The translations under genes and the position numbers were made by a program. From a virus: DNA of 64,000 nt. Position 1 is the stretch's first letter. Each line of letters begins with the position of its first letter. A model generated the notes under the pieces. It was not told the origin of the DNA. It searched no databases and saw nothing but the letters and a program-made list of their open reading frames with translations. The stretch lies in the IMG/VR virus record IMGVR_UViG_3300047462_000344, positions 1 to 64,000 of that record; one strand, given 5' to 3'. This document shows positions 37,213 through 56,588 of the stretch, piece after piece.

Positions 37213-40200
37213 TCAAAACATAGACCGTTGCTGGTCAGGTTCGGCCGGCTCCGCATCATTCGCCGGCACCGGCATATCAGCGTGCACAGTCTCCGCCGCC
37301 TCCTCTTTCCCGGCCCTGACCCGGTTCAGATATCCGGCCAGCCCGCGATCATCCAACCCCTCCAGCGGGCTGGTCATGACATCGCGCAAATCATATTTCG
37401 TGGTCAGCCTGGCCCGGGCCCGCCTCTCGGCGGGATGGTCTGCCACCACGTCAAGCAATTCCACATCGTTATTCTGCCCGATGCGGTGAATGCGCCCATT
37501 TCGTTGCGCATGGAGCATGGCGGTTAGCGGCGTGTCGGCCTGGGCCAGCCACCGCCCCGTCTGGAGGTTTGCGCCGACGGCCGCTGCGTCCGAGCAGACC
37601 AGCACGTCGTGTTTCCCCGCTTTGTATTCGGCCTTGATCCGATCCTTGTCCTTCGCCGAATCAGACCCGGTCAGGGTAACGACGCGGTGCCCCTCTGCCT
37701 TGAGTTGCGCCGCAATGGCCGCGACATGGTCGCGGTGGTGGGCGAACACCACACCCTGCTTCCCACGCCGCTCATTAGCAATCTTGGCGATGGCGCCTAT
37801 CTTGGCCCCGCCATTGATGGTGTGATGCACCGCGCTGTTATGCACGATGCCGATCGAATTCTGGAGATTCTCCGCCACCGCCCTGGCCTGCCCAGGATCG
37901 ACACCGTCGAAACTATTTGGCGACAGCACCTTCATCGCGTCCACATCCACATCCCCGCGCAACCTGGCGAGCCGACCGGCGGCGGCGGCATCGTCCAGGG
38001 CCTTGAGGTGGGCGCGCTGGCCATCATCGAGCTGCACGCTGACCTGCTTTCGATCCACTTTCACGCCGGGGTCGATGCCGCCGGTGTAGAAATGCCGCGC
38101 CATCTCGCGCTGCAGCCCGTCGCGCGCCGATGCGGTATCGACGCCATACTTCCGCATGAACGCGTCCCGGTCGGCATACCGCGCCGGGTCCATCTTTTGC
38201 AGCACATCGAATGCCTCGGAGGCATCGTTTTTCACGGGATCCGCCGTGGCCGACACGTAGGTGCCCATTACGTCCGAAACGCCATCGACGACATTGGCGA
38301 GGTGCGAATTCTGCTTCCCGGCCCGGTTGAGCAGATTATGGCCCTCATCGACGTAAAGCGCGTCGTGGTGCATCCCCTCCGCCTGCATCAAATCGCGCAT
38401 ATACTTGGCCCGCTCCGCCCGCGGCATGGCGTCCAGTTTCGCGGCAACCTCCGCCGGCTCGACCCCGTCACGCGCCGCGGCGAGGTGGATCATGTCGTCG
38501 CGGAAGGCCTGGTGCGTCACCACATTGAAATTATACGCGGGGTTCTTGTAGGCGGCGATCCGCTCCTCCCGCGACGCGCCAGGCGCGCAGTGCCAGTTAT
38601 ACTTTCCAGGCTCCAGCATGGTCAGCGCCTCGCCGTGGAACTGGCCCTGGACGACGGAGGGGACGAGGAACAGGCCCCGGTTCGCCTTCCCCTTGGCGTG
38701 CAGATCGGTGAAGGAGGAGAGCATGATGGAGGTTTTGCCCGACCCGACGCCCATGCCGAGGACCTGCCGACGGTTATGCTCGATCAGTTTTACGGCGCGC
38801 TGGCGCTTCACGTAGGCGCCCGACATATCCGGCCGCCACATCGCCACGGGCTGGCCAGGCCGGAAATTCTTGCCCACGATCGGCATCATGCCGGCGATTT
38901 GCCGCTCCGCGGCGTGGCCGATCGTCCATCGCTGGCCCAGCGCCGGCACGCGCGGATCCGGCGCCTCATCGTCCCCATCGCCTTGGCCGGCCGTATCGAC
39001 GGGCCCGAACATGCCCATCTGGCTTTGCTGGTATCCGGCTTCGTGCGCCGCCTCCGCGTCGAGCCGGTCCTTCACCCCGCCGGCGGCGTACTTGCCGCCG
39101 ACCCGGTTGCGCAGCGCATCGACCCGGTCGCGGTGTTCCTTCAACCGCGCCTCCCGCGCGGCGGGGTCCAGTGCGTCGAGATGGGCCAGGTCATGCGCGA
39201 TCGGCGTCCGGCCGACCCGCAGCTTCTTGCCCTTCGCCAGCCCGTTATGGGTGTCCGCGAAGGCGCGCAGCACCTTGCTCTTCACCACATCCTGCATCGC
39301 GGCATAGGCGTTCGCCGGGCTGCCCATGATGGTCAGATATTTGTCCCAGGACATGCCGGCCTTGTTGACCCGTTCGGCCAGCTCGTTCCGTTTCTGCCGC
39401 CTTTCCCGCCATTCCGCGTGCTCCGGATTCGGCGCGGCGCCGAACAGCCCCTCCGTCTCCCGCGCCGGTTCCGGGTCAGGTGTCGCGTCCAGTTTTTCCA
39501 ACTCGGCGCGCAAGCCCTCCGCGTCCGGATCGGACCGGCCATACTCTGCCCCGAACACGCTGCGCAGCGCGCGCTGATCCTGGGGCGTCAGGTCGCCGAC
39601 CGGCTTCCATGCCGCGACCCCCTCGGGGTGCTGCGCCAGGGCGCGATGCAGTGCGTCGGCGGCCGTCGGGTCGATCGCGAATTGCTGGCGGTGGATAGGG
39701 GCGTGATCCACGCCGAGCCGGTCCGTGTATTCATCGGCAAGCCGCTCGAAGGCGGCGCGGTGCGCGTCGGCCCGATTGATCTTGCCGTCCGGCGCGTAGA
39801 GCGGCGCCACGTCATTCACCGCCGCCATGAAGGCGCCACGGTTGCCGGCGCGCTGCATCGTGGTCTCGGCGAGCAGGTCCGCCATGATTTCGTCGGGGGA
39901 ATCGCCGTCGGCCGCCCGGGCACCTACGAAATCATTCACGGCGGCCGCCATGTCGCGAGGCGCGGCGGGAAACGGGTTGGCCAGGCGCGGCGCGGTGCCA
40001 GGCACCACATTCATGGCCAGGTCGGGCCGGTCCGCCACGCCGGCCGGCAACCAGCCATCCTGGTCAGCCCTCCCCTCCATGATATCCAATGCGCCGCGTG
40101 TGCGCTCCAGGTCGGCTTTCGACACAGGTGCGGCCAGCTTGTCCATGCCGGCGCCCGACACGGTCAGGATGGTGGACGCGCCGGCCCGCTCGATCCGGTA

Positions 40201-41805
40201 ATCGCCCTGATCCAGCCCGATCGCACGCGCCTGTTGGATTGCCGCTTCGATCGACGTGCCGCCCAGCGAGACTTCGACCTGGTCGTTCTTGGGCCGGTCC
40301 AGCGCCACGACGATGGCGGCGTTCGCCTCCATCTCGCCCAGGGATGTGCCCAGCACGCGCTGCGCGTTCTCCACGAAGGTCCGGCGCTTCGCGTTCAGTT
40401 CTTGTGCCGCGGCAAGGTCGGCGCCGGTATGGGCGTCGCCGAGCTCGATTTCGTGGGCAAGCTCCTGCCAGTCCCGCGCCTCGCGCAGCGCGTCGTCGCT
40501 CGCCGCCATGTAGTGGCTGACATGAAAGCGGCCCATCGCCTGCCTGACTTTATCCATTTCGTCGGGGGTCAGGTCCGTGGTGAGACGCCGCGCCAGTATT
40601 TGAGCAGCACCGGCAACCCCGAGCACGTCCACAACGGACCGGTCGATAAGGGACGCGCCGCCAGCGGCCAGCGCGAGAGCGTTGATGGAATTGTATGCGC
40701 CGACGCCGATGTGTCGGCCGAGGCTTTCCCCGCCGCCCTCGGTTTTTCCGATTTCGGAGAGGAAGGCGCGGGTTTTGATGGTTCGCAGATCATGCTCCAA
40801 CCCTTTTACGATATCCGCATCGACAGGCGCGCCGGCCACCTCCAGCACGTAAGCCTTGGCCTCGACCGGCTCTTTAGCCGCATCGATGTCCCGCATCCGC
40901 TCACGCCCGGATTTCTCGGTCGCGCGCAGCGCCTTCTCCGCCTTGAGCAGTTCGACCGTATCCCGTGCTTCAACGGTGGCATTTGTATTCACGGCCGGCC
41001 ATGGATCCCGCACGGTGCGGAGTTCCTCGGCAATCGCATCCGCCATACCCTTCCGCGCCGCGGCGGCGGCGGCTTTCTCAGGCGGCGTTGCCTTCGTCGC
41101 GGCCGTCTCTGCAGCCAGCGCCTCCCCAGTCAGCCCCGCCGCCTCCGCCCGCTCGCCGTATTTCGTTGCGTAGCCAAACCCCTTCGTCGCCGGCGCGACG
41201 GGGTCCAAATCCTGGACGGTGAGCTGGTCCGGCGCCTCGCCAGACATGGGGACCTCGCCCAGCGCCTCCGCCGCCCGCGCATCAGCGTCGGAGAGCAGCT
41301 TCCGGCGGGCCAGGTCCACCGCCTCCTTGGCGCGCCGGAACAGTTTGGCAGCGTGCGCGCGGCGCGCCTTGTCCCGCGCCCCTTCGCTCAGATTCTGGTA
41401 TTTCTCTTCGGGGAACCGCATCTCATCCTGCGTCCACCCCAGCTTGTCGGCCACGGTTTGCAGGAATTTGGCGCGTTGCTGGCCCAGTTCGGCCTTCACC
41501 GCCTGCCTGGCCTTGGCCTTGGAATCGGCCAGGCCGAGCTTCTTATCCTGCTCTTTCTGCCGCTTCTGCGCCTCCTTCCGAGCGGCCGATTTCTCAGCCA
41601 CTTCCTTCGCGTAATCCCCTTCCGACCGGACGCCGGTCAGTTTCAGGTAATTCAACGCCCCGCCGGCGCCGCCAATGACGTGATAGGACCCGTCGGCAGC
41701 CGGCTTGATCAGAACGGGGTGACCGTCAGTGCCGGGGCCGTTCGGCCGCACCGTGATCCAGCGTTCGCCGGCGCCCAACGATTTCAGGAACAGAACAGCG
41801 ACCAT
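37213..41805 (-). CDS. Giant (1530 aa) SNF2-family helicase protein with a ~900-aa N-terminal extension (polyvalent-protein type)
   Basis: Helicase motifs in the C-terminal 600 aa: I GMGVGSGKTS, II LYVDEGHN, III SATADP, VI AQRNGRIHRIGQ. The N-terminus MVAVLFLKSLGAGERWITVRPNG... is followed by coiled-coil-like sequence. Confidence 0.85.
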   Translation of the reverse strand: MVAVLFLKSLGAGERWITVRPNGPGTDGHPVLIKPAADGSYHVIGGAGGALNYLKLTGVRSEGDYAKEVAEKSAARKEAQKRQKEQDKKLGLADSKAKARQAVKAELGQQRAKFLQTVADKLGWTQDEMRFPEEKYQNLSEGARDKARRAHAAKLFRRAKEAVDLARRKLLSDADARAAEALGEVPMSGEAPDQLTVQDLDPVAPATKGFGYATKYGERAEAAGLTGEALAAETAATKATPPEKAAAAAARKGMADAIAEELRTVRDPWPAVNTNATVEARDTVELLKAEKALRATEKSGRERMRDIDAAKEPVEAKAYVLEVAGAPVDADIVKGLEHDLRTIKTRAFLSEIGKTEGGGESLGRHIGVGAYNSINALALAAGGASLIDRSVVDVLGVAGAAQILARRLTTDLTPDEMDKVRQAMGRFHVSHYMAASDDALREARDWQELAHEIELGDAHTGADLAAAQELNAKRRTFVENAQRVLGTSLGEMEANAAIVVALDRPKNDQVEVSLGGTSIEAAIQQARAIGLDQGDYRIERAGASTILTVSGAGMDKLAAPVSKADLERTRGALDIMEGRADQDGWLPAGVADRPDLAMNVVPGTAPRLANPFPAAPRDMAAAVNDFVGARAADGDSPDEIMADLLAETTMQRAGNRGAFMAAVNDVAPLYAPDGKINRADAHRAAFERLADEYTDRLGVDHAPIHRQQFAIDPTAADALHRALAQHPEGVAAWKPVGDLTPQDQRALRSVFGAEYGRSDPDAEGLRAELEKLDATPDPEPARETEGLFGAAPNPEHAEWRERRQKRNELAERVNKAGMSWDKYLTIMGSPANAYAAMQDVVKSKVLRAFADTHNGLAKGKKLRVGRTPIAHDLAHLDALDPAAREARLKEHRDRVDALRNRVGGKYAAGGVKDRLDAEAAHEAGYQQSQMGMFGPVDTAGQGDGDDEAPDPRVPALGQRWTIGHAAERQIAGMMPIVGKNFRPGQPVAMWRPDMSGAYVKRQRAVKLIEHNRRQVLGMGVGSGKTSIMLSSFTDLHAKGKANRGLFLVPSVVQGQFHGEALTMLEPGKYNWHCAPGASREERIAAYKNPAYNFNVVTHQAFRDDMIHLAAARDGVEPAEVAAKLDAMPRAERAKYMRDLMQAEGMHHDALYVDEGHNLLNRAGKQNSHLANVVDGVSDVMGTYVSATADPVKNDASEAFDVLQKMDPARYADRDAFMRKYGVDTASARDGLQREMARHFYTGGIDPGVKVDRKQVSVQLDDGQRAHLKALDDAAAAGRLARLRGDVDVDAMKVLSPNSFDGVDPGQARAVAENLQNSIGIVHNSAVHHTINGGAKIGAIAKIANERRGKQGVVFAHHRDHVAAIAAQLKAEGHRVVTLTGSDSAKDKDRIKAEYKAGKHDVLVCSDAAAVGANLQTGRWLAQADTPLTAMLHAQRNGRIHRIGQNNDVELLDVVADHPAERRARARLTTKYDLRDVMTSPLEGLDDRGLAGYLNRVRAGKEEAAETVHADMPVPANDAEPAEPDQQRSMF

Positions 41806-49435: not shown

Positions 49436-49779
49436 AAGCCAGCGTCCTCATCCACGATCCGCACCAGCTCGCCATCCGCGTTTTCCACGGCCTGGTCGGG
49501 GTGGGGGAAGGCCGCGTTCTGGTTGTACTCCTCCAGCGCGGCGCGCAGCGTGCCGTCCAGGCCGAGATGCGGGACCATGGCGGCGGTGACAGGATCATAA
49601 TAGGTGCCGAGCAGGGACAGGTTCGCGGCGGAATAGCCGGCCCGGCGCAGTAGCGCCTTCACCGGCCACCAGTAGATGCCGAACCGCTTGTAGTACTGCG
49701 GGTTGACCTGCAAATCCTGGACGATGTTGCGGAACACCGTGGCCGTGTCCAGCGGCGGCGGGGCGGCTTCGTCGCTCAT
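49432..49779 (-). CDS. Hypothetical protein coupled to the giant gene
   Basis: ATG 49779 in an ATGA overlap with the stop of the 2270-aa gene. 115 aa. Confidence 0.55.
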   Translation of the reverse strand: MSDEAAPPPLDTATVFRNIVQDLQVNPQYYKRFGIYWWPVKALLRRAGYSAANLSLLGTYYDPVTAAMVPHLGLDGTLRAALEEYNQNAAFPHPDQAVENADGELVRIVDEDAGF

Positions 49780-52700
49780 GCCGCCGCCTCTGCCGGCGCC
49801 GTATAGCCGTGTCCGCGCAACCACTCACCCACCGTTTTCCGACGGTCTATGTCGTCACCCACCAAATCTGGGTGCAGCGCGGCCTTGTATGTCCCATCTG
49901 GTGGGGCTGCCTCCTTCATCGGCATTCCCAGAACGCCAGCCCGCGCCGCCGCGGCGTGCAGTGCGGCGAGCACGGGTGGGGGCCAACGCTGATACGTCAT
50001 GGTCAGATTGGCGGTTGGCTGGGCCGCGCGCATTGCCGCGCCGAAATCTGGTGCGGCTGCAATGTTGTCCACCACGGCGGACTGCAATCTCTGCTCCGCT
50101 TCCTTCGCGCCGTCGGCGCCGAAGAAATGCCTGATTGGGTGCGCCCACTGATTCGCGGATTCTGAGTGACCTGAAAAACCCGGATATACACCATCCATGC
50201 CAGGCTTCCTGTAGCCCTTGCGACTCTGACTCAACGTGTTCGTCGAGACGAGCCGTCCCAACCCGTGACGCACATAAGCGTCCAACATCTTCTCGCGGTT
50301 CGCCGTCGTGGGCAGCATCAGATCATGGTCGCCCAACCTGTCGCGCACATCCCAGGAGTGATGGATTGATGCCGCACCGGATTCCTTATGAACCAGTGGC
50401 ACATGCGTCATGTAGCCGGCCGAGTGATCCAGAATCGCAGCCTTCATCCTGGCCTGAATATCCGGCTCGGCGGCTTCGACGACCGCCAGTGGCGCGTTGT
50501 GCAAATCCTGCCAAGTTTTCGCATTCGCAGCTTTCGCTGCAATCCCCTCCTCCGCCAGTTTCACCGCCGCGCCCCGCCGCGCAGCCTCCGCCTCTTTTCG
50601 CTCGGCGACGTATGCCGCCTCCGCCTCGTCGGAATGCTCGACAGGCTTCACGCCAGCCTTCATGTCGGCCAGGTCGAAATCCAGCGTGGTGTGGGGCGCC
50701 CCGAACATCCGCACCTTCAATGCCTGCTTCACCGGGTCGATACCGGTTACCACCCATTTCGTCGGGTCCGGCCCCCAATGCACGGGCCCGCCCGCCCCGC
50801 CGGCCAATTCGATACCCTGGCCCACTGCCCAGGGCTGCCCCGTGGTGGGGCAGAACAGCGCCGGCGTTTTCCCGTCGATCAGGTTCTTGCCCAGGAAATA
50901 CGGGTTGGCGCGCAATCCCACCTCGATGCGGCCGATATGCGCCTCCAGCCGGCGCTTCGTCTTGTCGGCCGCCGCTGAATAGCCACCCTCCCGCTTCGCG
51001 GCGTGCTCGGCGAGCTGCGCCAGGCTGCGCCGCATCTCCGCCATACGCTCGAATTCACGGACAGCCTTACCCCGCTCCTCCGCCGTCATCTTGAGCTCGG
51101 CGGCGGTCCGGTCCGCATCGAAGGCGGCGCGCGCCGCAACGGGATCCTTGGAGAGCATGATCATCTGCTCCTCCCGGCTCAACTTGGCGTCCGCGGCCTG
51201 ATTCTCGACCCGGTCGCCGCCGTTCCAGAGCAGGTCCGACCAGTCCTTTTTTCCCATGATGGTCTGGTAGCGAACGGCATCGAAAGAGCCGCGGGCCAGA
51301 TAGGTATGCACCCGGATCGAGGCTTTCTTGTTGCCCTGCCGCACCGCCCGGCCGTTGCGTTGCTGCAAGCCGCCCTGGTTCCAGGGCAGATCGAGATGGT
51401 GCAGGTCGGCGGTCCGTTTCTGGAGGTTCAGCCCTTCCTCCATCGCCGCCCCGCCGATAACGACATCAATGTCGCCCGCATTGAACCGCTCGCAAATCGC
51501 CTGCCGCGCGTCGCTGCTTTTGCAGGTATCGCCGTTGATGATGGCGATTCTGCCGCGCGGGATCCCGCGCGCCACGCACGCTGCCGCGATCTTTTCGTGC
51601 ACCGGCACGGTATCGCAGAAAACGACCTGCCCGCCCTCGGCCAAGCCAGCCTTCATCGCGTCGGCCGCCGCCTCGATCTTGGGCGACTTCGCCTTGGCGT
51701 GCCGGGGGTCGAGCAACCCCAGATCGATCGACGCCTTCCCCATGTCAGAAATGATGGAGAAGATATGATCCTCGCCGCCACCGTCTGAACCGGGCCGGCC
51801 GACCTGTTCAGCCCGCTTCCGCAACCCCTCGTAAACCGCTTCCTGCTCGGGCGACATGTCGATGACATGCTGCACATCGTTCCGATCGGGCAGTTTCAAC
51901 CCGACATCCTCGGCGGTTTTCCGATCGATGTAGCGGCGCATGATCTCGCGCAGCTCGCCCAGGTTCTTGAAGCCGGACGTGATGAGCTGCTCCTTGAACT
52001 CGCCGTTGGTGCCGTACACCTTGGCCAGTTCAAAGGTGCAGAACCGGTCCAGGAACGCCTCCGCATCCCGGATGCCGAGCTTCTCGAAGGCCTCCGGCGC
52101 GATGTGCGCCAGCATCGAATACACCTCCAGCGGGCTATTCTTGGTCGGTGTGGCCGTCAGCATGAACACGCCGCGGCCGTCATGCGCCTCCCGCAGCACC
52201 CGGGTTTTGTAGTAGGTATCGATGGCCCGGTTCGACTGGCCCGAACCGCCAAGAAACTTCGGCGACTCGCCAAACCGGTTCTTTGCAGAGAACAGATTTT
52301 TGTAGCAATTATGGACCAGGACGCCTTCGGCCAAGTAATTGTGGTGCGTCTCTACGCCGATATTATAGACGACGCCGCCGCGACACAGTCCGCCAAATGT
52401 TCCGTCACCCGTTGGTTCGAGAACCTCAACACGCGCCACCCCGACTGCCGCAAAAAATCCTCCTTCCGCTGGTCCTGGTCCCGCCGGATAGGTGATTGAT
52501 GCGACTTTCCGTCCACTTCGATTGCGATGCGCAAGGTCGGATGTGCCAGGTCGATCTTGTAGTGGTTCGGGCAGCCGGGCGCCTTCCTGGTCCGCACCAC
52601 AAATTCCGGTATCCAGAGAACCTCCGAATAGGTTCTTATAGACCACTTGTTCCGTCGTCAAATCACGCGCGTAAACGTAACCATCTGGCGTGAAGAAGGG

Positions 52701-55700
52701 GTGGTTGCCGGTGCAAACGATCGACGAACCATCCCCGAGCGTAACGCGCACCAGGTCGCGCGGGGCGCGGACCTGGAGGTCCAACACTCGGCTCATCACA
52801 ATCTTGCCCGTGGCGTGATCGAATGCGCGCACCAGGTCGCCGGGCCGATATGACTCGATCGGCTTTCCGTCCACCAAAGTCCCGGCGGGAAAGCAATGCC
52901 CCTCATCAACTATAAGCATGTCGATGCCGAGGTCTTCAAAGTAAACTGTGCCCTCTTTCTTGGTAAACTCGCGCGCCGCCTCCTTCTGGTCATGGCTTGA
53001 CTTGGCCTTGTTCAGCGCCTTGTCTTTCATGCCCCTCAGTTTCTCGGCGCGGCGGTTCCAGAATTCATCATCCTGCATCGCCTGCTTGCGTGCCGGGTCG
53101 ATGTCCAGGTCGTTCCAGCTTGGCTGGCTGATCAGAATGAAATCATAGTCATTCTGTTGCATGAGGTGATATTTACGCCGGCGCGTCGCCTCATCATCTG
53201 CCTTGGGGATGGGCCGGTTCCGGGCGTCCAGTTTCAGCGTGCCGTCGGCATTGGTCTGGTAGGATTCCCCGATGACGAGCACTTTCGAGCCTGGGAACCA
53301 GAACTCGCACTCGCTCATCCAGTTTGCGAGCACCGATTTCGGCACGACGAAGGTGGGTTTTGTGGCTTGGCCTGTCGCTTTGGCGAGACGGGCCAGCATT
53401 AACGACCTGCCGGTTTTGCCGAGCCCAACATCAGCCGCAATGATCCCTTTGCCCTGCTCCAGCGCCCAGCGAATGCCGGCGTAGTGGTAGCCATTGATGT
53501 CCAGGGTCGGGTTCAGGCCCGGTATCTGGATCGGCGCCTCGGAATAGACCCGGCCGCGGAAGCCGCGATAGGTGCGGTTGTACCGTTCTTCCACCTCATC
53601 ACGATATTCCGACCCGAGCAGCCACGCCCTGAATTTCTCGTTCAGGGCATCGACCGCGTCCTTGTCCTTTTTTCGCACGCCGGTCCGGTTGAGGTACCGT
53701 TCGATCAGGTCGATATCGTGATCGCGGAACCATGAATTGCCGGCGCCACGCGGCGGCTTGGTCTGGAATTCATAGACCCCGTCATCGACGGTCACCACGG
53801 CCGGCACCATCTTATGGGCCGAAAACACACCGCCCCGCGGCTTGTTGTAATCCGCCGCCTTCGCGGCCAGCCAGGCGGTGAGCAGTTCCGGCGTGATGAA
53901 GCCGGAACTCATCACGATTTCCACATCCTCCAGGGATTGCGGCGCGATCGCGGCTTCCAGCGCGGCAGCCTGTGCCGCGTATTTGGCCTGGTATGGCGCG
54001 GCCACGGATTCCGATTTCGACGCGGCCGTGGCGGCGTCATATTTCGCCCACATGTCGCCGGCGATGTAATTATCCAGCGTCGTCCAGGTCGTTCCGTCCG
54101 CTTCCACGGCATAATCGGGCGAAGCGATGAGATGGTCCAGCACGTCAGCCCGGGACTTGCCCGAGGCGCCGGCGAGCTGGTCCGCGTCGAAGGCGCCGAG
54201 TTCGTTGGCCAGCTTTTCCGCCACCGTATCCAGGCCGGCCTCGGCGCGTTGGGCGAGCCGCCCCGTGATCAGGTCGGAATACGTGCCATCGTCATTGACG
54301 GCGCCGAGCATCCGCGCCGTCCTGTGCCGCGCCTCGGTGACCCGGGCAGCGTGATCCTCCGCGGAGGCGCCGGACTGCATGGGCAGGGACGGCGCCTTGA
54401 GCCATGCCGCCAAATCCTTGTTGCGGGACGGCACGCCATGCAGCGTGATGTACTGGTCCAGCGCCTCCGCGACTTGGGCCCGGACCAGGCGCGGATCGTT
54501 GGCGCGGCCGTCGCGCAGTTCGTCGAGCATGTCGGCAATGGCCTGGGCATCGTGCACGGCCGCCGGCACGCCGACCTGGGCGAGATGCCAGCGCGGCGGC
54601 TCCCCGGTCAGGACGTAGCGCACCCCGTCCACCGTCTTCACGTCCCCTACCCGGGCGACGTGATAGGGCGGTTTCAGCGCGGCATTCAGCGCCCGCTTTT
54701 TCCCGTCCGCGTCCAGCACGCCCATGATATCGGCCATGGCGGGGCCGCGCAGCGCGAGAGCGTCATCGGCCGGCCGCCAGGCGGACAGCGCGGCCGGGAT
54801 ACCCTGCATCGACCCGGTCACCGTGATGTCGTCGCCCATGCCAGCCTTGGCGCGCCAGCCCGGCTCCAGGGTGCCCATCACGCCAGGCGTGCCCGGCCCA
54901 TCCGTCATGTAGGTCCCGGCCACCACGGCGCTATCCAGCACGCCCACGGCCTTGAGTTGCGCCTGGTTCAGCGTGCCCAGCGCCCCTGCCACCTCTTGCG
55001 GCCGCTTCCGCAGGATCAGGATATCCGACGTCACGCCGGTGTTTGACGCGGCAAAAGCGGTGTTGGGCAGCCGGTGGCAAGACACGAGTTGCGCCTTGCA
55101 CAGCATGTCCCGCCGGAACGCCGCGCCGTTTTTGGAATCCATCACGCCGGTGGGCACGATCAGGGCGAGCAGGCCTCCGTCTCGGAGCTTGTCGAGACCC
55201 GTATCGACGAAATACCGCTCCGCCGTGGTGATGTCCTTCTTGTCGTCGCGCAGGAATCCGCCGCGCACCCCGAACGGCACGTTGCCGATCACGGCATCGA
55301 ACAGCCTTCCATCCTGCGTCGCGAACCGCTCCAGGCTGGAATTCTGCACGGCATGGCCGGCCCCGGTGTGAAGGATGTTGGCGATGCGGGCCGACACCGC
55401 ATCCAGTTCCACGGCCTGGACATGGGCGCCGGCCGGCGCGGTATGCAGGAACACCCCCGTCCCCGCCGAAGGCTCCAGCACGTCGCCGCCGCGAAATCCG
55501 CACGCGGCCAGCATGTCCCACATCGAGGCAGCGACCGCAGGGTCCGTGTAGAATTCATTCAGCGACGCGCCGCACCCGCCATTGCCCGAATACCGCGCCA
55601 GCACGGCCCGGTCCGCGTCCGTCATCTCGGCGTCGGTTTTCGCCTCCAGCAGCGCCAGCGCCGCCTCGTTTGCCGCGATCCTGGCCCGTTTGATGGCGGC

Positions 55701-56588
55701 ATCGCCCAGGCCGGCCACGTCAGGCCCCCACGGCAGCGTGGCGGCGGAGGTGCGCGCGGCATGCTGGTCGGCAGCGGCGCCGAGGTCGCCCAGATCAGCT
55801 GCGGCTGGTGCCGGTGCAGGCGGCTTACCGCCGGCATTCACCCATGCCGCAGCGTTGGCCAGCGCCTTGCGCGGATTGGCCCACCAACTCACCGTGCCGC
55901 CATCATTCGTGGCGGCACGAAGCGCGCTCCCCATGGCGGCGCGCACCTTGGGCTTCGTGATGCCGAAAAGCCGCTGGACCACGGGCGAGAGGTAGGAGAA
56001 CTCGCTGGACTTGCCGACGCGCAGATCGAGGTGGCGCAGATCGGCGTCGGTTATTTCCTCTCCGCCAAGCAGTTTTGCCGCTATCTCCTTGTCCCGCGCC
56101 TCTCTTGCCACCTTGGCGGCAGCCTCTTCGCCGCGGCGCTGGAACAGGTCCCGGCCGGCCGCAACGGCTTGTGCCTGGGTGTCGAAAAGGTTCGTGGTGT
56201 CGAAAGGCCCCGAACCAATCCTGACGCGCCACTTCCCGCGACCAAGCGGGCCCCGCCCCTCCTCCAGCACCGCGTCATCGGGAAGCCCGGCAAGGAGCGG
56301 GGCGGAGGCTTGTTCATGTGGTGGAGAAATGTGGGGGGCTGGGGCTGGCGCGGGCACCACCTCGGCCGGCCGCACCGGGGCGTCATGCCGCGGCGCGAAC
56401 AGGTCCCCGCCGAACAGCACATGCTGCGCGGGCTGATCGTGCCGCTTTTTCCGGGTCGAGACGTGCGGCGCCACATACTGGCCGTGCGACGTCACATACC
56501 CTTTGACCTGGACGGGCTCGGCGAACAGGTCCGCCGCCGCCCCGCCGGGCAGCGCCGCCTTGACGAACAGGATGCGCGGGTCAGCCAC
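49776..56588 (-). CDS. Giant (2270 aa) N6-adenine-MTase + SNF2/DExH helicase protein, P1 DarB-like / polyvalent protein; contains an intein
   Basis: GTG 56588 overlaps the upstream TAG. MTase motif I VLEPSAGTGVF and motif IV IGNVPFG. Helicase motif I AADVGLGKTG, motif II LIVDEGH/CYKN (split by the intein), motif VI QQRNGRAVRQGN. Confidence 0.9.
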   Translation of the reverse strand: MADPRILFVKAALPGGAAADLFAEPVQVKGYVTSHGQYVAPHVSTRKKRHDQPAQHVLFGGDLFAPRHDAPVRPAEVVPAPAPAPHISPPHEQASAPLLAGLPDDAVLEEGRGPLGRGKWRVRIGSGPFDTTNLFDTQAQAVAAGRDLFQRRGEEAAAKVAREARDKEIAAKLLGGEEITDADLRHLDLRVGKSSEFSYLSPVVQRLFGITKPKVRAAMGSALRAATNDGGTVSWWANPRKALANAAAWVNAGGKPPAPAPAAADLGDLGAAADQHAARTSAATLPWGPDVAGLGDAAIKRARIAANEAALALLEAKTDAEMTDADRAVLARYSGNGGCGASLNEFYTDPAVAASMWDMLAACGFRGGDVLEPSAGTGVFLHTAPAGAHVQAVELDAVSARIANILHTGAGHAVQNSSLERFATQDGRLFDAVIGNVPFGVRGGFLRDDKKDITTAERYFVDTGLDKLRDGGLLALIVPTGVMDSKNGAAFRRDMLCKAQLVSCHRLPNTAFAASNTGVTSDILILRKRPQEVAGALGTLNQAQLKAVGVLDSAVVAGTYMTDGPGTPGVMGTLEPGWRAKAGMGDDITVTGSMQGIPAALSAWRPADDALALRGPAMADIMGVLDADGKKRALNAALKPPYHVARVGDVKTVDGVRYVLTGEPPRWHLAQVGVPAAVHDAQAIADMLDELRDGRANDPRLVRAQVAEALDQYITLHGVPSRNKDLAAWLKAPSLPMQSGASAEDHAARVTEARHRTARMLGAVNDDGTYSDLITGRLAQRAEAGLDTVAEKLANELGAFDADQLAGASGKSRADVLDHLIASPDYAVEADGTTWTTLDNYIAGDMWAKYDAATAASKSESVAAPYQAKYAAQAAALEAAIAPQSLEDVEIVMSSGFITPELLTAWLAAKAADYNKPRGGVFSAHKMVPAVVTVDDGVYEFQTKPPRGAGNSWFRDHDIDLIERYLNRTGVRKKDKDAVDALNEKFRAWLLGSEYRDEVEERYNRTYRGFRGRVYSEAPIQIPGLNPTLDINGYHYAGIRWALEQGKGIIAADVGLGKTGRSLMLARLAKATGQATKPTFVVPKSVLANWMSECEFWFPGSKVLVIGESYQTNADGTLKLDARNRPIPKADDEATRRRKYHLMQQNDYDFILISQPSWNDLDIDPARKQAMQDDEFWNRRAEKLRGMKDKALNKAKSSHDQKEAAREFTKKEGTVYFEDLGIDMLIVDEGHCFPAGTLVDGKPIESYRPGDLVRAFDHATGKIVMSRVLDLQVRAPRDLVRVTLGDGSSIVCTGNHPFFTPDGYVYARDLTTEQVVYKNLFGGSLDTGICGADQEGARLPEPLQDRPGTSDLAHRNRSGRKVASITYPAGPGPAEGGFFAAVGVARVEVLEPTGDGTFGGLCRGGVVYNIGVETHHNYLAEGVLVHNCYKNLFSAKNRFGESPKFLGGSGQSNRAIDTYYKTRVLREAHDGRGVFMLTATPTKNSPLEVYSMLAHIAPEAFEKLGIRDAEAFLDRFCTFELAKVYGTNGEFKEQLITSGFKNLGELREIMRRYIDRKTAEDVGLKLPDRNDVQHVIDMSPEQEAVYEGLRKRAEQVGRPGSDGGGEDHIFSIISDMGKASIDLGLLDPRHAKAKSPKIEAAADAMKAGLAEGGQVVFCDTVPVHEKIAAACVARGIPRGRIAIINGDTCKSSDARQAICERFNAGDIDVVIGGAAMEEGLNLQKRTADLHHLDLPWNQGGLQQRNGRAVRQGNKKASIRVHTYLARGSFDAVRYQTIMGKKDWSDLLWNGGDRVENQAADAKLSREEQMIMLSKDPVAARAAFDADRTAAELKMTAEERGKAVREFERMAEMRRSLAQLAEHAAKREGGYSAAADKTKRRLEAHIGRIEVGLRANPYFLGKNLIDGKTPALFCPTTGQPWAVGQGIELAGGAGGPVHWGPDPTKWVVTGIDPVKQALKVRMFGAPHTTLDFDLADMKAGVKPVEHSDEAEAAYVAERKEAEAARRGAAVKLAEEGIAAKAANAKTWQDLHNAPLAVVEAAEPDIQARMKAAILDHSAGYMTHVPLVHKESGAASIHHSWDVRDRLGDHDLMLPTTANREKMLDAYVRHGLGRLVSTNTLSQSRKGYRKPGMDGVYPGFSGHSESANQWAHPIRHFFGADGAKEAEQRLQSAVVDNIAAAPDFGAAMRAAQPTANLTMTYQRWPPPVLAALHAAAARAGVLGMPMKEAAPPDGTYKAALHPDLVGDDIDRRKTVGEWLRGHGYTAPAEAAA
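52308..52895 (-). mobile_element. Intein (196 codons) in helicase motif II
   Basis: Starts with Cys at CFPAGTLVDG (block A). TGNHPFF (block B). VVYNIGVETHHNYLAEGVLVHN (blocks F/G), followed by the +1 extein Cys. Excision restores DEGH-CYKN. Confidence 0.8.
52352..52600 (-). CDS. Vsr-like PD-(D/E)XK (DUF559-type) endonuclease ORF in the +1 frame inside the intein
   Basis: GTG 52600. ...HYKIDLAHPTLRIAIEVDGKSHQSPIRRDQDQRKEDFLRQSGWRVLRFSNQRVTEHLADCV. The frame is open and homologous-looking from 52657 (..TYSEVLWIPEF..). Confidence 0.6.
   Translation of the reverse strand: MVRTRKAPGCPNHYKIDLAHPTLRIAIEVDGKSHQSPIRRDQDQRKEDFLRQSGWRVLRFSNQRVTEHLADCVAAASSIISA

Follow-up and report, generated by a model that had tools for sequence, protein, structure and literature searches.

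An intein of a phage helicase gene with the 5'-truncated remnant of a Vsr/DUF559-type nuclease gene in its +1 frame

The DNA analysed here (the window; 64,000 nucleotides, positions 1 to 64,000 of IMG/VR virus record IMGVR_UViG_3300047462_000344) contains, on the minus strand, a 2270-residue N6-adenine methyltransferase and SNF2-family helicase gene (49776–56588). Its reading frame is open throughout, and its Pfam domains are N6_Mtase, SNF2-rel_dom and Helicase_C. Phage structural genes of myovirus-like type, including those for the major head and tail sheath proteins, surround it in the window, and the gene is that of a myovirus-like phage or prophage. All features described below lie on the minus strand. 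The helicase gene is interrupted by an intein of 196 amino acids (52308–52895; host residues 1232–1427), recognized by sequence, by Pfam and by a homologue from Rhodovastum. It is inserted directly behind helicase motif II, DEGH, which forms the last four codons of the N-extein (52896–52907), and its context is LIVDEGH↓CFPAGTLVDG...EGVLVHN↓CYKNLF (arrows mark the junctions), with Cys1 at the start, His-Asn at the end and Cys+1 at 52307–52305. The insertion site follows from the translation and from the intein-less allele of Bordetella phage PHB04, which has the uninterrupted sequence VDEGH↓AFKNLY. The empty site of the window gene can be reconstituted as ATCGACATGCTTATAGTTGATGAGGGGCAT↓TGCTACAAAAATCTGTTCTCTGCAAAGAAC.

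All marks of a class-1 intein are present (C1, T62-G-N-H65 in block B, the terminal VLVHN196 and Cys+1). When isolated, the intein scores 39.1 bits against Pfam Intein_splicing (cut-off 35.8) and 31.9 bits against PT-HINT (cut-off 27.7), these signatures being confined to the two intein ends. The N-terminal splicing domain (intein residues 1–90; 52626–52895), with Cys1 of block A and TGNH of block B, is beta-rich in the AlphaFold2 model, where its confidence score pLDDT is 76–91, and it is 40–72% identical to the N domains of related inteins. The C-terminal splicing domain (residues 147–196; 52308–52457), with blocks F/G and the sequence VVYNIGVETHHNYLAEGVLVHN, has a pLDDT of 70–84 and is kept in all related loci. 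Residues 91–146 (52458–52625) form a linker that is translated in the host frame and has neither a fold nor a motif of its own: a Pfam search with the host-frame middle gave no domain match, and the model leaves it unstructured (pLDDT 27–31, no secondary structure). Judging from the intact motifs and from the predicted folding of residues 1–90 together with 147–196 (pLDDT 70–91), the intein would be expected to splice.

Read in the +1 frame, the DNA of this linker specifies a catalytic core of the Vsr/DUF559 homing-nuclease type, as identified by Pfam, alignment and AlphaFold2. This open reading frame (ORF) remnant (52352–52657) consists of 101 codons (52657–52355) and a TAG (52354–52352), lies just downstream of a TGA closing the +1 frame (52658–52660), and has neither a start codon nor the N-terminal half of the nuclease. 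Its residues 31–93 (52379–52567) align to positions 42–102 of the 109-position Pfam profile DUF559 (E = 1.5e-11, 44.6 bits, cut-off 20.6). The ORF also matches MTES_1575 (E = 2.3e-9), and tblastn against related loci gives E-values down to 1.7e-27. Five residues that are invariant or nearly so in family alignments of 50 and 77 sequences are all kept: D36 (52552–52550), E47 (52519–52517), D49 (52513–52511), H53 (52501–52499) and D62 (52474–52472). An AlphaFold2 model of the ORF based on 76 homologues reaches a pLDDT of 87.5, and the top PDB matches of this model in Foldseek are 3R3P, the catalytic domain of I-Bth0305I, and 3HRL, a DUF559 protein (probability 1.00, TM 0.50–0.59, E about 1e-2). 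Sequence and model thus confirm the +1 ORF as genuine Vsr/DUF559-type nuclease sequence. The domain is incomplete in the window, with profile positions 1–41, corresponding to the N-terminal helix, unaligned and model residues 1–15 in coil conformation. The sole canonical starts, GTG GTG at 52600 and 52597 (52595–52600), fall inside the first predicted beta strand and are not preceded by a well-spaced Shine-Dalgarno sequence.

At its 3' end the nuclease sequence runs into the C-terminal splicing domain, the first 34 or so codons of which are shared between the two. Within 52355–52457 these dual-function codons read GWRVLRFSN... at +1, the conserved end of the nuclease, and VARVEVLEP...VVYNIGVE in frame 0, the first strands of the C-terminal splicing domain (pLDDT 70–84).

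An initial annotation, made from the letters of the window alone, had described an intein with a nuclease-type insertion point between its splicing blocks, a motif-free linker in the host frame and, in the +1 frame from 52657 to the TAG at 52352, a Vsr/DUF559-type core whose only canonical starts are the two GTG codons. Each of these points is borne out by the motif, profile and model data given above; the +1 translation is exactly as quoted there, and there is no ATG. The annotation had also pointed to the AT-richness of the segment as a sign of an inserted gene. The AT excess is real and modest (GC content 0.578 in the +1 ORF and 0.648 in the host gene); the low GC content runs on into the adjacent extein, and the excess is weak evidence of foreign origin. 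As to the constraint on the host frame that the annotation had proposed, the window alone does not reveal it: over the nuclease 1.47 host-frame stop codons would be expected, the probability of finding none being 0.16, and in the +1 frame 0.4–1.6 stops would be expected, so that neither open frame is significant. The GC content of the window is 63%, and many long spurious ORFs occur in every frame. Significance beyond chance is therefore provided by homology and by the family of related loci, not by the openness of frames in the window.

We assembled a set of 81 loci, of which 80 came from an intein scan of viral contigs and one from a Rhodovastum plasmid record; the plasmid element recurs as one of the viral loci. 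A nuclease homologue is present in 63 of the 81, and in all 63 both splicing halves are in one frame with the nuclease between them at +1. Among the 62 loci analysed in detail (GC content 0.34–0.63) there is not a single host-frame stop across the intein, and the +1 ORF ends 5–50 nucleotides ahead of the last intein codon. Full-size inteins occur in 58 of these 62, with +1 ORFs of 186–325 codons. A second scan of viral contigs brought 14 loci (13 on new contigs) in which the parts are arranged likewise, and the layout recurs in five other contigs (L084, L087, L089, L090 and the fragment L086), namely one contig from an Elusimicrobia metagenome-assembled genome, three Logan contigs and one fragment close to the host gene of the window. 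None of the related loci examined has an in-frame nuclease. The loci sharing the +1 offset are 30–60% identical at the protein level; as the offset is common to every nuclease-bearing relative at this divergence, the comparison indicates that the +1 arrangement is an ancestral and conserved architecture. The splicing domain and the nuclease show a significant, weak signal of co-inheritance (Mantel rho 0.22, reached in 0 of 2000 permutations).

In the homologous SNF2 gene of the Rhodovastum atsumiense plasmid RHOApe, a 283-residue intein occupies the same site and contains a +1 ORF with an ATG and a zinc-finger-like N-terminus. This ORF (L001 5609–6130, equivalent to L002 2781–3302) belongs to the closest host-gene relative and is full-length; its AIEVDG motif is changed to AMDVIA, which suggests an inactive nuclease. 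The 112-kb 'plasmid' RHOApe doubles as a viral genome entry in IMG/VR.

The intein/nuclease lineage (L002–L105) is inserted in most cases at DE↓CH(H) of SF2 helicases, and otherwise at DE(A/G)H↓C/S where the host is an SNF2 protein or at GDE↓C(Q/A) where it is terminase-like. The use of several Walker B/motif II sites fits extein switching via shared nucleotide-binding motifs.

Four conserved elements are recognizable in the alignment of the family nucleases: a CxxC...CSxxC zinc ribbon with zf-FCS/L24e-like matches, the sequence TNRKYASxRMxxNNPM, the motif RGGNG, and a DUF559-like core of the form YKxD...AIEVDGxSH...QDxKK...GWxVLRFSN. The NRKYAS..NNPM and RGGNG motifs are presumably DNA-binding. 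Pfam DUF559 is matched by all 50 aligned members. In a comparison of the family profile with the PDB, 3HRL is found with E = 5.9e-12 and I-Bth0305I (3R3P) marginally, with E = 0.031. Most full-length relatives have an ATG of their own just past the N-terminal splicing domain, usually 0–6 codons after the upstream +1 stop. In public protein sets, 692 proteins match the family profile at E ≤ 1e-10; the best 120 of these 692 are all of stand-alone size (166–329 residues) and are named DUF559 or Vsr endonucleases, with no long in-frame fusion among them. A free-standing homologue of 255 residues (L088 1801–2568), 49% identical to the core in the window, has a metallophosphatase gene and thyX as its neighbours and is not flanked by intein halves, which shows that free-standing relatives of the intein-nested nuclease exist.

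Both frames are under selection across the family, in different ways. The number of stops to be expected was computed by shuffling synonymous codons of the nuclease ORFs in 54 non-redundant loci. None was observed in the host frame against 421 expected; in the third frame, 709 were observed against 638 expected, that is, no avoidance. Sequence entropy at nuclease codon positions 1, 2 and 3 is 1.12, 0.99 and 1.43, and the peak of variability at position 3, which is position 1 of the host codon, is maintained throughout the catalytic part. The pattern switches to that of the host frame in the last eight or so nuclease codons, the tail that is shared with splicing block F. Among the close relatives L025, L030 and L031, substitutions that are silent in the nuclease and change the host frame outnumber the reverse by about 3:1 (24 versus 8, for example). 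The substitution bias together with the lack of host-frame stops implies that the nuclease is conserved as a protein and the overlapped host frame only for being free of stops. The constraint on the host frame, not significant in the window, is thus overwhelming at the level of the family. The comparison of homologous inteins which the initial annotation had proposed hence shows the same frame throughout, constraint on both frames and an uninterrupted host frame. It lends no support to two suggestions made there: that the nuclease is a recently frame-shifted former in-frame domain or the product of an indel error, which is contradicted by the +1 offset in all nuclease-bearing relatives, and that an internal start or a +1 shift has to be invoked, as full-length relatives have their own ATG in the 5' part which the window copy has lost.

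This loss is an in-frame deletion. Alignments of DNA and protein with the Rhodovastum intein and with 49 family nucleases place its junction approximately at 52620–52634 and its size at about 330–390 nucleotides relative to full-length relatives. Some 110–130 N-terminal codons have been removed, including the start, the zinc ribbon, NRKYAS..NNPM and RGGNG, and the +1 ORF of the window can be aligned to the C-terminal core of the family only. The intein is accordingly short, with 196 residues as compared with 272–409 in intact members. With start, zinc ribbon and N-terminal motifs deleted, the nuclease of the window has most likely ceased to be produced or to be directed to a target. We consider it likely that the element is a relic which, after the 5' deletion of its nuclease gene, has probably lost its mobility and is turning into a mini-intein, and it may still be splicing while it decays.

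Other 5'-truncated relics were seen as well, namely locus L094 (1501–2010), a 170-residue intein with a damaged core, and protein P0002, a 191-residue intein whose host-frame linker aligns with that of the window. The mini-inteins L011, L016 and L021 (136–146 residues) have only the last 30 or so nuclease codons left. In all such relics the deletion has left in place the 3' stretch shared with the C-terminal splicing domain.

Several observations weigh against this view of the window and of its family. The catalytic core of the window shows no visible decay, its mean identity to the family being 0.44 compared with a family average of 0.41; this would be accounted for by a recent deletion or by some remaining selection on the core. 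Close relatives of the window copy, by which decay might be judged, were not found: a scan of genome contigs with the intein alignment gave 287 pattern matches and no confirmed one, a scan of metagenome contigs with the window intein gave a single distant locus, and a protein search with the host-frame intein and its flanks gave three matches only. The AlphaFold2 model of the intein was built on a shallow alignment of three sequences only. Finally, Shine-Dalgarno-like motifs are only modestly enriched before the ATG codons of the family, occurring in 24 of 50 cases (48%) against a background of 29% by a loose definition, and in 26% against 16% by a strict one.

The undecayed core would fit an alternative in which the truncated ORF continues to be expressed and yields an active nuclease made up of the catalytic domain only. 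Translation might then begin at GTG 52600 or 52597 or at a non-canonical start such as ATA (52612–52610, 8 nucleotides past a GGAGG), or the ORF might be reached from the intein frame by a +1 ribosomal shift between 52657 and about 52625. In favour of this, the core has kept every invariant catalytic residue and is as family-like as that of intact members, the +1 frame is open for 101 codons, and GGAGG is found at 52625–52621. We nevertheless regard this possibility as unlikely. The N-terminal half, with zinc ribbon, NRKYAS..NNPM and RGGNG, is nearly invariant in the family and is gone here, and homing nucleases of this type require their N-terminal region for target recognition (cf. I-Bth0305I; PMC3239194). 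Use of a GTG would cost the core its first beta strand, and the GTG codons are 20 nucleotides from the GGAGG. A slippery sequence was not identified, an open +1 frame is expected by chance at this position, and a similar 5' truncation has been followed by further decay in another lineage (L094).

For the intact members of the family we propose that the homing endonuclease is a separate gene in the +1 frame, laid over the middle of the intein, and not an in-frame domain. Frame 0 of the host mRNA would specify an N-terminal splicing domain of about 85 residues, a linker of about 190–320 residues that is constrained only to be free of stop codons, and a C-terminal splicing domain of about 45 residues; the two splicing halves would form the HINT fold, and the precursor would splice in cis. 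Translation at +1 from an internal ATG that closely follows the N-terminal splicing domain would yield a free-standing nuclease of 186–325 residues, with its stop inside the coding sequence of blocks F/G. The targets of the nuclease are presumably intein-less alleles, which it would cut at helicase motif II (DE↓CH.., DE(A/G)H↓C/S) or at a terminase-like GDE↓C, and the whole unit may then be copied in by repair. On balance, and with somewhat more confidence than doubt, we take the element of the window to belong, in decayed form, to a large class of contiguous inteins of phages. The intact nuclease of this class, composed of a zinc ribbon and a Vsr/DUF559 core, would be separately translated from a +1 overprint of 0.6–1 kb, the host frame would serve there as a stop-free disordered linker, and the last 30–45 or so nuclease codons would be dual-function codons shared with the strands of the C-terminal splicing domain.

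Separate initiation of the nuclease might be questioned on account of the weak Shine-Dalgarno enrichment. Programmed +1 frameshifting could instead produce a fusion of N-extein, N-intein and nuclease, or the intein could be split and the openness of the host frame incidental; the overlap of the nuclease 3' end with the C-terminal splicing part is reminiscent of the 6–69-bp overlaps in 'fractured genes' (PMC2677866). These variants appear quite improbable to us. The +1 stop, usually 0–6 codons ahead of the ATG, leaves almost no space for a shift site; the lack of host-frame stops where 421 are expected means that read-through in the host frame is under selection, which would be pointless for a split intein; and both the stop codon and the 27–51-nucleotide non-coding spacer of fractured genes are missing. 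An ordinary in-frame intein domain, displaced by a sequencing or assembly indel or by a very recent pair of compensating frameshifts, would correspond to the textbook arrangement, and indels had been left open by the initial annotation; this reading has next to no probability left, as dozens of contigs from independent assemblies and one finished plasmid record share the +1 offset and the open host frame at 30–60% protein identity, and no related locus has the nuclease in frame. Chance openness of the +1 ORF combined with a spurious match to the profile, as the abundance of long spurious ORFs in the 63% GC window and the insignificance of its openness might suggest, can be discounted for all practical purposes in view of a Pfam E-value of 1.5e-11 beyond the curated cut-off, tblastn matches down to 1.7e-27, a confidently predicted Vsr-like fold and the conservation of all catalytic residues.

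In canonical bifunctional inteins such as PI-SceI, the HINT domain is interrupted between blocks B and F by nuclease DNA, the deletion of which leads to mini-inteins in the course of the homing cycle. In contrast to that of the +1 family, their nuclease is part of the same polypeptide, as an in-frame domain. The next relatives in terms of layout are the contiguous inteins of actinobacteriophages described by Gosselin, Arsenault & Gogarten (bioRxiv 10.1101/2025.01.02.630785), with antisense LAGLIDADG, antisense Vsr-like and same-strand 'frame 3' endonuclease VII-like nucleases. They reside in terminase, DNA polymerase, minor capsid and thymidylate synthase genes, and the authors proposed that a free-standing nuclease gene invades the intein, followed by decay to mini-inteins. 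The inteins described here are likewise contiguous, with an unstructured and stop-free host-frame middle and a separate nuclease ORF at the usual endonuclease position. They differ in that a Vsr/DUF559-like nuclease with a zinc ribbon is encoded on the sense strand at +1, and in their location: they are found in diverse environmental phages, where they occupy helicase motif II or a terminase-like Walker B site. The window itself has the out-of-frame, same-strand layout of these authors, with an ORF between the splicing blocks and an open intein frame, but its nuclease ORF is incomplete and without a start of its own.

The 'fractured genes' reported by Dassa et al. 2009 (PMC2677866) consist of the halves of a split intein with a free-standing endonuclease gene, Vsr-like or GIY-YIG, between them. 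The N-terminal half is followed by a stop and a spacer, the nuclease 3' end overlaps the C-terminal half, and a new Met for the latter completes a set of three separate genes whose products are joined by trans-splicing. Strand and order (N half, nuclease, C half) are the same as in the +1 family, as are the Vsr-like nuclease with an extra N-terminal region, the 3' overlap and the location mostly in phage DNA-metabolism genes. The difference is that the host frame is stop-free here through the whole nuclease gene, which points to one precursor and cis-splicing. The +1 family corresponds neither to step IIa nor to step IIIa (in-frame insertion) of the Dassa model and looks like an intermediate that is undescribed there. 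A split intein, or fractured gene, was considered for the window and rejected: neither in the window nor in any of the 62 first-scan loci analysed in detail is the host frame broken, and there is no stop after the N-terminal half.

I-Bth0305I, with which the EDxHD family was characterized by Taylor et al. 2011 (PMC3239194; PDB 3R3P), resembles the +1 nucleases in its Vsr-like catalytic fold, the top structural match, in the order of an N-terminal DNA-binding region and a C-terminal nuclease, and in its tie to a self-splicing element. In contrast to these, it is encoded by a group I intron and has NUMOD/helix-turn-helix motifs in the N-terminal region instead of a zinc ribbon; by the profile E-values given above, the +1 family is far closer to canonical DUF559 (3HRL) than to I-Bth0305I. 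An out-of-frame HNH nuclease has been described in a non-intein insertion of ShiLan (Arsenault et al. 2025; PMC11855218). As in the family described here, a homing nuclease ORF is on the same strand in a shifted frame and the insertion is open in the host frame; unlike here, there is no splicing domain, the insertion presumably stays in the host protein, and the nuclease is of the HNH type and in the third frame.

The initial annotation had been aware of no described intein with an associated nuclease of this family in another frame. Vsr-like nucleases associated with split inteins have been known since 2009 and out-of-frame intein nucleases since 2025. We found no report of a same-strand +1 Vsr/DUF559 nuclease in a contiguous intein, nor of the helicase/terminase lineage, in a literature that did not extend to a 2026 bioRxiv preprint on a cyanobacterial dnaX intein with an 'out-of-frame' endonuclease. 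The principle is already known, so that the claim of novelty made in the annotation goes too far, and the Vsr/DUF559 same-strand +1 variant and its breadth appear to be new.

As to origin, the data support the gain of the nuclease by invasion of a free-standing homing gene and a stable route that does without in-frame fusion, the sole requirement of the +1 arrangement being a host frame free of stops, which selection enforces. If this is correct, the family would be a contiguous 'missing link' joining free-standing nuclease invasion, fractured genes and classical bifunctional inteins, and a plausible connection between the latter two, and its overlaps would be among the longest and best-replicated same-strand gene overlaps in phages. 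It would offer dozens of replicates in which two frames share 0.6–1 kb of DNA, and just as many for the tolerance of the intein loop towards unstructured polypeptide; such long same-strand dual coding is the striking aspect of the family. The window element, in which the nuclease is beheaded and the intein still intact, would represent an intermediate stage that is ordinary within the homing cycle.

The window was also searched for a second intein or nuclease copy able to complement the truncated one, and none was found. A second very large helicase ORF (37213–41805, minus strand, 1530 residues) belongs to PHROG 62, DNA helicase (E = 6e-161); neither in this ORF nor elsewhere in the window was a homologue of the intein or of the nuclease detected, insertions of other kinds not having been looked for. 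The extein DNA on both sides of the intein (52200–52400 and 52850–53250) has a GC content of 0.52–0.57, compared with about 0.65 in the rest of the host gene; this could be a co-conversion tract from a donor of lower GC content, or merely reflect Lys/Glu-rich coding.

Automatic gene calls split the host helicases at L084 2118–3962, L087 978–3581, L089 1167–3908 and L090 591–3896. In these four contigs the +1 nuclease is called and is followed by the C-terminal half of the helicase only, whereas the host frame is actually open for 615–1102 residues. As gene callers break the host helicase genes or call the nuclease only, phage and metagenome data contain wrong annotations of inteins as well as of their host genes, and inteins with a +1 nuclease are probably under-annotated.

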